Under the pieces are notes generated by a model that saw only the letters and a list, made by a program, of their open reading frames with translations, searched no databases and was not told the DNA's origin. A stretch of DNA of 61,994 bases, counting the filler. It is 4 parts of 4 records of this genome, joined end to end, with 100 filler letters (N's around TTAATTAATTAA, not from the genome) between each part and the next. Parts side by side here need not be neighbours in the genome. Positions count along the whole stretch, not along the records: positions 30,851 to 45,252 come from DRR378314_1713; 3 more parts are not named here. The stretch is one strand, 5' to 3'. A program made the position numbers and the translations under genes. This document shows, piece by piece, positions 31,046-37,183 of this stretch. The number at the start of each line of letters is the position of its first letter. Position 1 is the stretch's first letter.

Positions 31046-34000
31046 GGCAAAAGAGGCTGCGAAGGCAATGCGCAAGCGCCTGGAGAGCAAGGAGCCGCAG
31101 GTCGTGTACCTGACGTTCGCGGTACGTTTCACAAGAAAGGATGACGCGCGGTACATTTTCTCCTGCGGTGACAGACCCGCCGCGGGCTCTGCCGCAGCGT
31201 GCACCAGCGCGCGGTCTTCGCTCTGTTGGCGACAGTGTTGTTCGTGGGTCAATTTCACTGTAAACTAGTGCAACCACCCTAGCTACAGGTGCGCCGCTGG
31301 TATGCTTCGTCATTCCCTCGCGCTTGTGACATACGCCGGATGTGAGCTTATTTGGCGCCTTGGGGCATTTGTGGCGGTCGCTTCAAGTGTTTAACAAACC
31401 ACTGGAACGTGGCTGTCTGGTGTTGGCGAATAGGAATCTTAGAACGCCGGCGTGTAGAGTGTGGTACAGCCTGCAGCTTTGGTGCATGTTTCTGCGGCTG
31501 CCAGACCGCGATTGCTGCCGGGAGGATTTTTCGTGTTCTGGGGTGCCCTGGGCTGCTTGCACACGCGATCGGCCGCGTCCCCACGGGCACCCGAAGGTCG
31601 TCCGAGTGTGCTAGCGTGCGGGAAAGCTGCTATGCAAGTAGGGCGTGCGTGTCAGCGTGCACTTCCGTCAGCGTGCTATTGCGTATTGGTCTTTATATTC
31701 GCTGGTTTATACAACAATGGAGGTGCCGCAAGAACCGTGGGGGCTTGGCTCTGCGACGTGCGTGCCGGCTAGTAGCGCTGGCCTTTGTGCCCCAGAGCTT
31801 GTGTTTCGCATCTGATGGCGCAATGCTCCCTTGGCATGTCGTTCCCAGCAAGGCGCGTGAGGCAAGGCTTTCGCGCGTCACTTCTGCAAGCCCTGTCTGC
31901 GTTTACGTGGGTTTGTATTCTTTCCTCTCGAAGTTGCAAAGTCATTATGGTGTATGCTGCACATGGGCCAAAGTGCGGCACAGAATATTCTCTTCGTGCG
32001 CTGAACGTGCGGGAGGTGCTGTAGTCGCTGCGCTGCGGCTTCTGAAGCACGCGAGGGAACGGAGGGGGTGTGCTCGCCTCGAGTCGGTCGCTGGGGCGCG
32101 AGCGCCTGTTGCTGCCCCTGAGCCATAGGGAGCGCTCTAGGGCTCGAAGGGCGCGGCAGTCGCTCCCCTCGGCTGCTCAGCGCGCGGGCAAGCATTTTCC
32201 ACCGCAGCAGCTCCCCTTCTGCGGGCGGAAAAGGCCCTCGTCTCTCCATAGGTACTCTCGTACACGGCGCGCGTGCGCGTACACTATAGAAGCTTAGTTT
32301 GATCAGACGGAACATGGTGCCACGGTCCTACTTCTGATGAGCGCACACGAAGGGGCGCGTGCAGACGGCGCTCGAAAATTCTCTGTGGCCCGTCCCTACA
32401 GGTCGTTTGTGCTGCGCGCTGACGCTGGGGCGCATTTCGTTCTGTGCTCTTGGATTCCTCTGTCCCTCGCTCTCGGTGCGGCGCTTCTGTTCTCCCCGGT
32501 GCAGCTTGTGGACGTTTGCATCGAGTCGTGCTTTGACACGGATGATGATAATGCGGACAAGTTTTTGCAACAGTTGGCGTCGAAGAGCTTTGTTGCTGCC
32601 CTTGTGGACTCTCTCTCCAAGAAGGTGAACCGGCAAAAGGCGCGCGTTGCTTTCCTTGGCTAGGCAGGGAAGGCGAGGAGGGTGGTTTGGGCAAGCTTGT
32701 CTGCTGGGCGGGGTCCCCTTTTGCTACCGTATGTAGGCAGAACGCATTCCACTTCGCGATATTGAAGCCCCAGTATATTGGCTCGTTGTATTCGGGCTAT
32801 AGTTGCTGCAGCATTTGATCGAAAGCGTTGTCTTGGTCGGGATCGCGTTGCCGCTTGCGGCAAGGTGGAAACCCGGGAGTCGAGGTCGCCTCGGGTTTGC
32901 CGCGTGCTTCTACCCTAGTTGGCTGATGCCCTCTATGTGAACGGAAGCACTGCGCTGCGGCCATTTGTGCCTTGTAAGCCAGCAACGTGCAGCGAGTGTT
33001 TGCTGATTATAGATTATAGTTTTAATTACTCTCCCACGCAGCGGTCACATACCACGCGCAGGCGCGGGAAGTTAAACCCGCGAGGTTTGTGCTGGTTGTT
33101 CATGGAGAGGTGGTGTGGCCTTCTTGTGGGGCTCGCGTCGCCTTTTGTTCCCTTTTGCCTTTTGTACCGACCACTGCGTGCCTTTTTGCGTTGTAGACTA
33201 TGTCGAGCTCTCAGGCCAAGAGAATCGCATCGTACATCCAGAAGTGGGGTCTTCTCTTCGGCAAGGACCACCCGAAATACTCTGTGTTCTACGAGACGTA
33301 TCGGTCGCTTCAGAAGAAGGGTAAGTGGGATTGCCAGCGAGAGCGTCGTCTGCCGATCGATCTAGGGCGCGTGCGCGTACCCTCTCTTGCAATTGGTATA
33401 TTCGGATCTCGGCCCGAGGCTCCGTGCTCGGAGTGGATGAGGCGCTCAGAGTCATACGCGCAAACGCCATTATTGTTGGTTGCTTCTTGTTGTTGATCAT
33501 GCCTTGCACGTGTCACGCTGTCGGCCCCATATGCGAACGCAGGAGTCGATTTCCCTGTTGAGCGCACGGATGACCAGAGCGAGACGGGCTCCACGACAAC
33601 TGACGTACGTTTTACGTAGAGCTACGCGTTGCCGCTGGTAGATGCGTTGTTGGCACTCTACGGCGGAGCGCGCAGAATAGTGTGCGCGTGAACACCAGCG
33701 GCTCGTATCCGAGAACTGGTTGGCTTGCGGACGCGCTGTCAGAGCGTGATGTGCGAGAATGCGCTCGAGTTGGACGGCTTGGTGGCCCCTTCGTTGCCCT
33801 TACACGTTCTTCTCGCTTGCATGATTGCCTTTTCCCTGCAGACGCTCGATGATGATTTCTCCAATCTTCACGTTGAAGATGACCCGGATGAGCGCCTGCG
33901 CGCTGATCTGTTGATCATTCAGGAAAACGTTGATATCGTACGTTGGCCGCTTCTGCGCGCCTCACCGCGGTTTTGCGCACGCACGTACACCCACGGCGCG

Positions 34001-37000: not shown

Positions 37001-37183
37001 GCCATTGCGCCCGCGGGTGAGTACATGGGCGAGTCGCTGTGCTCGCTGAACTTCGGCAAGCGCGCGCGCACTGTCGAGCTGGGCAAGGCCAAGAAGAACA
37101 AGGACGAGAGCGATTTGACCAAGTACAAGACCATGATCAACAAGATGGACTCTGCCATGACCAAGGCGAAGACGAAGAAGTAG
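31046..37183 (+). CDS. Eukaryotic spliced gene: VHS-GAT-coiled coil-C-terminal kinesin-14 motor (5' end not recovered)
   Basis: GT-AG exons 31046-31121, 32505-32624, 33197-33320, 33543-33604, 33842-33937, 34115-34210, 34599-34721, 34889-37183 join in frame; VHS (AKEAAKAMRKRL..; IQKW..F..Y..LQKKGVDFP), GAT (LAEML..IVQELVFNCQAMQ..L..RYE), kinesin neck [55 protein letters not shown]. Confidence 0.85.

Follow-up and report, generated by a model that had tools for sequence, protein, structure and literature searches.

The window analysed here is a stretch of DNA of 61,994 bases in which four contigs, which are separate molecules, are joined via three linkers. The gene that concerns us, which encodes a kinesin-14 motor with a VHS-GAT head, lies on the second of these contigs (30851-45252, record DRR378314_1713), which is intron-rich and eukaryotic. 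Eight exons between 31046 and 37183 on the plus strand join in frame to give 996 amino acids (aa) plus a stop, with zero internal stops, and measure 76, 120, 124, 62, 96, 96, 123 and 2295 nucleotides (nt) from exon 1 to exon 8. AG precedes each exon and GT follows each except exon 8, which closes in the stop codon, and four of the seven donors read GTACGT. A first-pass annotation, made by a model from the letters alone, had proposed this chain with these lengths and in this frame; when we rebuilt it from the sequence the result was identical, and every peptide string quoted there was found in the spliced translation.

In order to assign the exons to domains, Pfam scans were run exon by exon, and all VHS and GAT scores given here come from single exons. 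Exon 1 as seen, which is not the true first exon (31046-31121), encodes VHS helices and matches Pfam VHS (PF00790) over profile positions 41-64 (E 0.017, 15.4 bits); exon 2 (32505-32624) is mid-VHS by position and aligns to the VHS region of haptophyte proteins discussed below; and exon 3 (33197-33320) encodes the C-terminal VHS helices, with a match to VHS profile positions 108-140 (E 0.21, 11.9 bits). The end of the VHS and an acidic, Ser/Thr-containing linker are found in exon 4 (33543-33604), and the linker continues through exon 5 (33842-33937) up to the start of the first GAT helix. Exon 6 (34115-34210) holds the first half of the GAT, matching Pfam GAT (PF03127) over profile positions 7-37 of 77 with 32 residues (E 1.4e-6, 28.9 bits), and exon 7 (34599-34721) would by its position encode the second half. 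About 45 residues separate the end of the VHS from the start of the GAT, so that order and spacing fit the layout of TOM1 and TOL proteins, with sub-threshold scores. The scans found neither a GAE ear nor any other extra domain.

The remainder of the protein comes from exon 8. Its first part (34889-36046) encodes a stalk of about 377-390 aa between the GAT and the neck, rich in E, K, A, L, R and Q (E 21%, K 14%, A 10%, L 9% and R 9% over 377 aa), which from this composition is probably a coiled coil and presumably dimerises; an ESM Atlas query with the stalk returned kinesin clusters only, below 0.9. The neck and motor domain follow at 36047-37075. In the 764-aa product of exon 8, Pfam Microtub_bd, which covers the kinesin-14 neck and the first half of the motor, matches residues 387-548 (E 1.1e-44), and Pfam Kinesin matches residues 411-729 over the complete profile, 1-327 of 327 (E 4e-104). 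The translation retains an intact P-loop, switch I and switch II, with SSRSH and DLAGSE readable. The protein therefore has the marks of a kinesin-14, namely a complete motor that is C-terminal and preceded by the neck of the family and an E/K-rich stalk. A Lys-rich C-terminal tail and the stop codon, read from the translation, occupy 37076-37183, and the 3' untranslated region extends at least from 37184 to 37293. Across the whole chain the per-exon matches are collinear, running from VHS through GAT to the motor.

Whether these exons belong to one transcript was addressed with public sequencing runs. A search returned five matching runs, four of which (X1-X4) were compared with 30851-37600. 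X1 is RNA by guess, though spliced forms are present in it; X2 is a marine oligo-dT metatranscriptome from a different study; and X3 and X4, which cover the motor and/or the 3' region only, are uninformative on the fusion. Each of the seven predicted junctions is present in X1 contigs as a GT..AG joint, at depths of 307-371, from the exon 1/2 joint (31121/32505, depth 307) through the joints on both sides of exon 2 to the joint between GAT and stalk (34721/34889, depth 371), and four of the seven (exon 3/4, 4/5, 5/6 and 6/7) are found independently in X2. One X1 contig of 2,912 nt spans exons 3-8 and ends at 37293 in the 3' untranslated region. The first-pass annotation had named RNA across 34721/34889 as the critical check, and it is this contig that crosses the junction as a GT-AG splice, with a shorter side of 123 nt. 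Since the GAT-to-stalk junction lies within one RNA-derived contig, there is one gene here and not two, and together with the per-exon Pfam order this bears out the proposed anatomy of VHS, GAT, stalk, neck and motor in one polypeptide. The observation is thus confirmed: a single gene, expressed as a single spliced mRNA, encodes a predicted VHS-GAT head and a kinesin-14 motor.

A different explanation would be that two adjacent genes, one for a TOM1-like adaptor and one for a kinesin-14, have been joined by read-through or by chimeric assembly of the RNA contig. It is true that a contig spanning two genes is not by itself proof of a single transcript, and that the exon 7/8 joint was not seen in X2. 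The joint in X1, however, is a frame-keeping GT..AG splice of 167 nt with 123 nt on its shorter side, its depth of 371 is of the same order as the 307-333 of the upstream contigs, the joined frame is free of stops, and exon 7 has neither a stop nor any feature of a terminal exon. An in-frame splice at full depth makes a read-through artefact unlikely, and we regard two joined genes as very improbable indeed.

The same runs speak to the reading frame itself. Compared with the window, X1 shows 2 substitutions and, behind 37173, an additional 3 nt that keep the frame, so X1 is not the source data of the assembly. In the coding part of exon 8, the ten substitutions that X1, X2 and X4 contain are without exception at the third position of a codon (9 synonymous, 1 exchanging D for E), and the differences between runs become dense only beyond the stop codon. 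From substitutions confined to third positions, dense differences after the stop and spliced RNA, it follows that the frame is real, expressed and under purifying selection. An unspliced X1 contig runs over intron 2 (32595-33224) at a depth of 39, roughly one tenth of the 333 reached by the spliced joint; this indicates some intron retention, which is expected of RNA. Within the motor, the comparison with the runs showed five further joints (36532/37076, 36702/36782, 36702/36839, 36813/36914 and 36877/36944), which we rejected as splicing of the kinesin gene: their ends are not GT-AG and their sides are 20-36 nt long, and they are taken as conserved segments of other kinesins.

The N-terminus is missing, as the first-pass annotation had it. 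An artificial joint occupies 30751-30850, in the form N44-TTAATTAATTAA-N44 that the linkers take (the other N runs of the window are at 45253-45352 and 53240-53339), and the contig of the kinesin gene starts at 30851; exon 1 opens with the third base of a codon whose first two bases lie upstream. A 493-nt X1 contig that joins exon 1 to exon 2 extends about 296 nt further 5' (493 - 121 - 76), into sequence absent from the window, and therefore the true first exon or exons lie beyond the contig edge. The last 30 of its loose 5' letters, read by hand, form ten codons open in the frame of exon 1. Positions 1-40 of the VHS profile must then be encoded by the 5' part beyond the edge.

Several results weigh against taking this gene as a TOM1-like VHS-GAT head on a motor. 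Summed over the two exons, the VHS matches reach about 27 bits, compared to a cutoff of 29.8, and the GAT match of exon 6 alone reaches 28.9 bits, compared to a cutoff of 31, with only half of the profile matched. Exon 2 alone gave no VHS match in Pfam, and exon 7 alone, which is expected to cover GAT profile positions 38-77, matched neither VHS nor GAT. A phmmer search of the PDB with exons 2, 3 and 6 gave zero matches at E 10, and exhaustive HMMER searches of 1.84 billion representatives with exon 3 returned no VHS or GAT protein. Exon 6, lengthened by 8 intron-encoded residues to reach the 40-aa minimum, was compared with longer proteins and left four candidates, none at E 10. In addition, the 296 nt or more of further 5' mRNA could encode extra domains, as in the haptophyte proteins, and the contig depths may allow an additional, shorter kinesin-only isoform. 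The seven matches that the exon 3 search did return were all TPR repeat proteins (five with CHAT, one with a kinase), each matched over several short stretches, and were set aside as spurious. An ESM Atlas query with exon 7 returned no usable match.

The first-pass annotation had asked for a phylogeny of the motor, and the relatives of this domain were collected as the 120 best listed among proteins of 420-1337 aa and the 120 best listed among those of 1338-3820 aa. The 120 best listed of the shorter class are KIFC3, KIFC2_3 or KIN-14Q/R-type kinesin-14s from animals, choanoflagellates, oomycetes, streptophytes and other groups. Over neck and motor, the 45 best of these 120, which include proteins of animals, choanoflagellates, Mesostigma and Physarum, are 49-55% identical to the query, with no identical or close protein among them. 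A VHS or GAT Pfam entry was found in 0 of the 120 and, at E 0.001, in 0 of 42 rescanned relatives (protist and long ones were chosen), and the N-terminal 235 aa of the query had no match below E 0.1 among the 120. Several relatives carry other heads (CBM20, AMPK1_CBM, malectin or CH), so that N-terminal cargo modules have evidently been swapped freely in this group. Ten loci in JGI metagenome contigs were all generic kinesins, with no close relative and no 5' exons among them; nine of the ten are at 34-45% identity in their best segment, and one short match reaches 53% over 104 residues.

Our quick tree has 65 rows, the query and 64 of 263 proteins picked for named diversity; P0200, a short match, was dropped. 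It places the query in a 27-row group (Shimodaira-Hasegawa-like approximate likelihood-ratio support, SH-aLRT, 90) together with a holozoan KIFC3 clade, a haptophyte clade, a Mesostigma protein and others. Within this group the query stands on a long branch (0.73) without a resolved sister, and it lies outside the CH-domain and malectin clades. We also weighed a holozoan origin and rejected it, as the query falls outside the 99% holozoan clade. Membership in the KCBP-type kinesin-14 VI class was likewise rejected: MyTH4 and FERM together occur in 0 of the 240 listed relatives, and the single MyTH4-bearing match, P0147, stands outside the 99%-supported kinesin-14 clade that contains the query.

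Among the relatives we also observed that many KIFC3-like kinesin-14s of red algae and metagenomic protists carry CBM20 or AMPK1_CBM heads, often with PLAT (P0104, P0114, P0159, P0168, P0178, P0192, P0201, P0213 and others), which suggests motors that bind storage-polysaccharide granules.

Kinesin and VHS occur together in 3 of the 120 listed matches of 1338-3820 aa (P0165, P0179 and P0186), and these form, with P0169 and P0171, a family of 2,329-2,594 aa. Chrysochromulina tobinii KOO21738.1 and a C. parva model fall within the clusters of this family, and proteins of the P0165 type are therefore haptophyte. In these proteins a degenerate N-terminal kinesin-like remnant is followed by a coiled coil, a TPR_12 block, the VHS, a long linker, a further coiled coil and the C-terminal motor, with the VHS at about residues 770-1100 and scoring 26-27 bits, below the cutoff. 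Head residues 14-135 of the query align weakly with residues 813-927 of P0165 (pairwise blastp E 1e-4, 23% identity over 125 columns), and the N-terminal 235 aa align, again weakly, with the haptophyte VHS region (hhalign E 0.003, 145 columns), in an alignment that continues into a haptophyte helix resembling the first GAT helix. A structure model of this haptophyte region is of low confidence (mean predicted local distance difference test, pLDDT, 57.2). A fold search with the model ranked the VHS domains of Hrs, GGA, STAM and TOM1 first at E 0.05-0.2, with no match at E 0.001; three further helices follow a disordered linker in the model, and the search did not recognise GAT-like helices.

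Like the present gene, the haptophyte proteins combine a VHS with a C-terminal KIFC2/3-like motor, but they are more than twice as long, they carry an N-terminal kinesin-like remnant, a TPR block and a VHS that lies about 770 residues in, Pfam GAT is found in none of the five, and their motors are only 46-47% identical to that of the query. When the query and the five haptophyte proteins were forced to be monophyletic, the tree came out 10.9 log-likelihood units above the free quick search with an approximately unbiased test value (p-AU) of 0.73, a clade that was chosen only after the tree had been inspected and that is made up of long branches. Such a result allows, rather than shows, a common origin of the query and the haptophyte VHS-kinesins. 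It is a tentative idea, and one we hold to be unlikely as it stands, that the present gene and the haptophyte giants descend from one old fusion and make up an undescribed family with an ESCRT-0-like VHS-GAT ubiquitin reader in cis. If true, these protists would couple the sorting of ubiquitinated membrane cargo directly to transport toward minus ends, with neither a separate adaptor nor dynein. A literature search for kinesin, VHS domain and haptophyte found no paper.

Turning to function, ubiquitin is bound by both the VHS and the GAT of TOM1, TOL and GGA proteins. Kinesin-14s that have this neck move toward minus ends, with exceptions to that direction occurring within the family. We consider it on balance probable that the gene encodes a kinesin-14 of a marine eukaryote, at least 996 aa long, in which a TOM1-like VHS-GAT tail, a stalk and a KIFC3-like neck and motor serve to haul membranes toward minus ends. 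The stalk would dimerise the protein, and the VHS-GAT head would attach directly to endosomal or trans-Golgi membranes, either through ubiquitinated cargo (GAT and VHS), through acidic lipids (VHS), or through both. The motor would then move the bound membrane toward the minus ends of microtubules, so that an adaptor which normally recruits its motor in trans would here be built into the motor, as in the trypanosome kinesin TbKIFC1, with a GAT added. This functional reading, with ubiquitin recognition and retrograde carriage, is plausible; ubiquitin binding and minus-end direction are taken over from what is known of TOM1, TOL, GGA and kinesin-14 proteins and from the precedent of TbKIFC1.

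As to the setting of the gene, the contigs at 1-30750, 45353-53239 and 53340-61994 look bacterial, with long genes without interruption that include an AcrB-type pump, a GAF plus PEP-utilising enzyme, an amidase, an acyl-CoA ligase and an enoyl-CoA hydratase. Three bacterial-looking contigs and one eukaryotic one point either to a mixed assembly or to a contaminant origin of the latter. On the contig of the kinesin gene, a multi-exon gene on the minus strand (about 37900-44100) is convergent to it; its exon-sized open reading frames (ORFs) show, by eye, leucine-rich repeat (LRR)-like motifs of the F-box/LRR kind, and three pieces of it had no Pfam match at 1e-5. At 28758-30750, on the minus strand of the first bacterial contig, one stop-free frame takes in the end of an ABC-transporter ATPase gene and an amidase gene, and this 678-aa stop-to-stop ORF is most simply read as two adjacent genes.

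The wider interest of the kinesin gene lies in how cargo recognition is coupled to transport. TOM1-type adaptors pass ubiquitinated endosomal cargo to motors in separate binding steps, and a motor with a built-in VHS-GAT reader would be a natural minimal system for such coupling. To our knowledge many protists are without ESCRT-0 proper, which makes TOM1-like modules their candidate ubiquitin receptors, and a motor-linked TOM1-like module would be a new use of these receptors. TOM1 recruits myosin VI in trans and binds clathrin through its C-terminus, and GGAs end in a GAE ear. Near their N-terminus, TOM1/TOL and GGA adaptors have a VHS and then a GAT, as the present protein does, but the C-terminal half of the present protein is a stalk and a microtubule motor, so that in layout it is not a TOM1 orthologue. 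Membership in the GGA family was considered and rejected, as exon 8 gives only Kinesin and Microtub_bd, with no GAE. From the side of the motor, the nearest among those listed are animal and choanoflagellate KIFC3 proteins (KEGG K10406, KIFC2_3), which share the layout of stalk, neck and motor but differ in the lack of a VHS or GAT Pfam entry.

The closest characterised counterpart is TbKIFC1 of Trypanosoma brucei, which has a C-terminal kinesin and an N-terminal VHS that was modelled on TOM1, and thus, like the present gene, combines a TOM1-like VHS and a C-terminal kinesin in one chain (main text of PMC7479354). As reported there, its VHS binds membranes that are anionic and contain cholesterol, and it attaches the motor to endocytic membranes. 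Both the trafficking of APOL1 and that of endosomal membranes require this domain, and VPS4 is in its proximity proteome (PMC7479354). GAT is mentioned zero times in the main text of that paper (PMC7479354). TbKIFC1 is a kinetoplastid protein, and no trypanosomatid is among the 240 best motor relatives listed, which makes close orthology with TbKIFC1 unlikely.

The trypanosome protein also suggests that the VHS-GAT head may act as an anchor to membrane lipids or to a protein without reading ubiquitin, in which case the protein would be a membrane hauler of the TbKIFC1 kind whose GAT-like helices would serve another partner or autoinhibition. On the other hand, it is with a VHS-GAT tandem that TOM1, TOL and GGA proteins bind ubiquitin, and the match to GAT is a specific one, with E 1.4e-6 on 32 residues. 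The anchor explanation draws on the fact that this match extends over only half of the profile, and on TbKIFC1 itself, where VHS function was traced to the binding of lipids by helix 7 and where ubiquitin is not invoked in the main text (PMC7479354). We judge an anchor blind to ubiquitin to be possible, though doubtful.

A VHS is also found on Bryopsis Kin14VIc (GMH44105.1), described as a KCBP-like (class VI) kinesin-14 with a putative VHS tail that is confined to the Bryopsidales, with homologues in Caulerpa and Ostreobium, and thought to stem from the fusion of a motor and a VHS protein (main text of PMC12961179). It is like the present gene in being a kinesin-14 with a VHS in its tail, and the main text of that paper mentions no GAT, no ubiquitin and no link to endosomes (PMC12961179). 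There, RNA interference against Kin14VIc slows the movement of chloroplasts in both directions (PMC12961179). This phenotype of chloroplast motility rather than endosomes counts against our reading of the present gene as an endosomal motor and for one in which the protein serves to position or move a plastid or another large organelle. The starch- or glycogen-binding CBM20 and AMPK1_CBM heads of other KIFC3-like relatives point in the same direction. Kin14VIc is, however, KCBP-like by description, whereas the present motor appears to group with KIFC3-like kinesin-14s and, from the lack of MyTH4 together with FERM among its listed relatives and the placement of P0147, is not of the KCBP type; an organelle mover of this sort is in our view improbable. 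We continue to favour direct carriage of membranes by the VHS-GAT head. In a 2006 survey of kinesins in 19 species, VHS is among the kinesin-associated domains in the legend of Fig. 11, and several domains are given as confined to Leishmania or Phytophthora sojae (PMC1434745); the term VHS is absent from the five supplementary text files of that survey.

The first-pass annotation had taken the architecture as undescribed, with the reservation that an already characterised family would remove its novelty. For a VHS joined to a C-terminal kinesin this claim does not stand, in view of TbKIFC1, Kin14VIc and the 2006 survey, and such a family is largely characterised already; for the VHS-GAT tandem, which we did not find on a kinesin in print, it does. 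With a VHS-kinesin already characterised, the gene is moderately surprising. Taken together with TbKIFC1, Kin14VIc and the haptophyte proteins, the gene described here indicates that kinesin-14 tails recruited VHS domains in several eukaryote lineages, repeatedly or anciently. What it adds to these known systems is a GAT behind the VHS, a KIFC3-like motor, its lineage, and a possible kinship with the haptophyte family.

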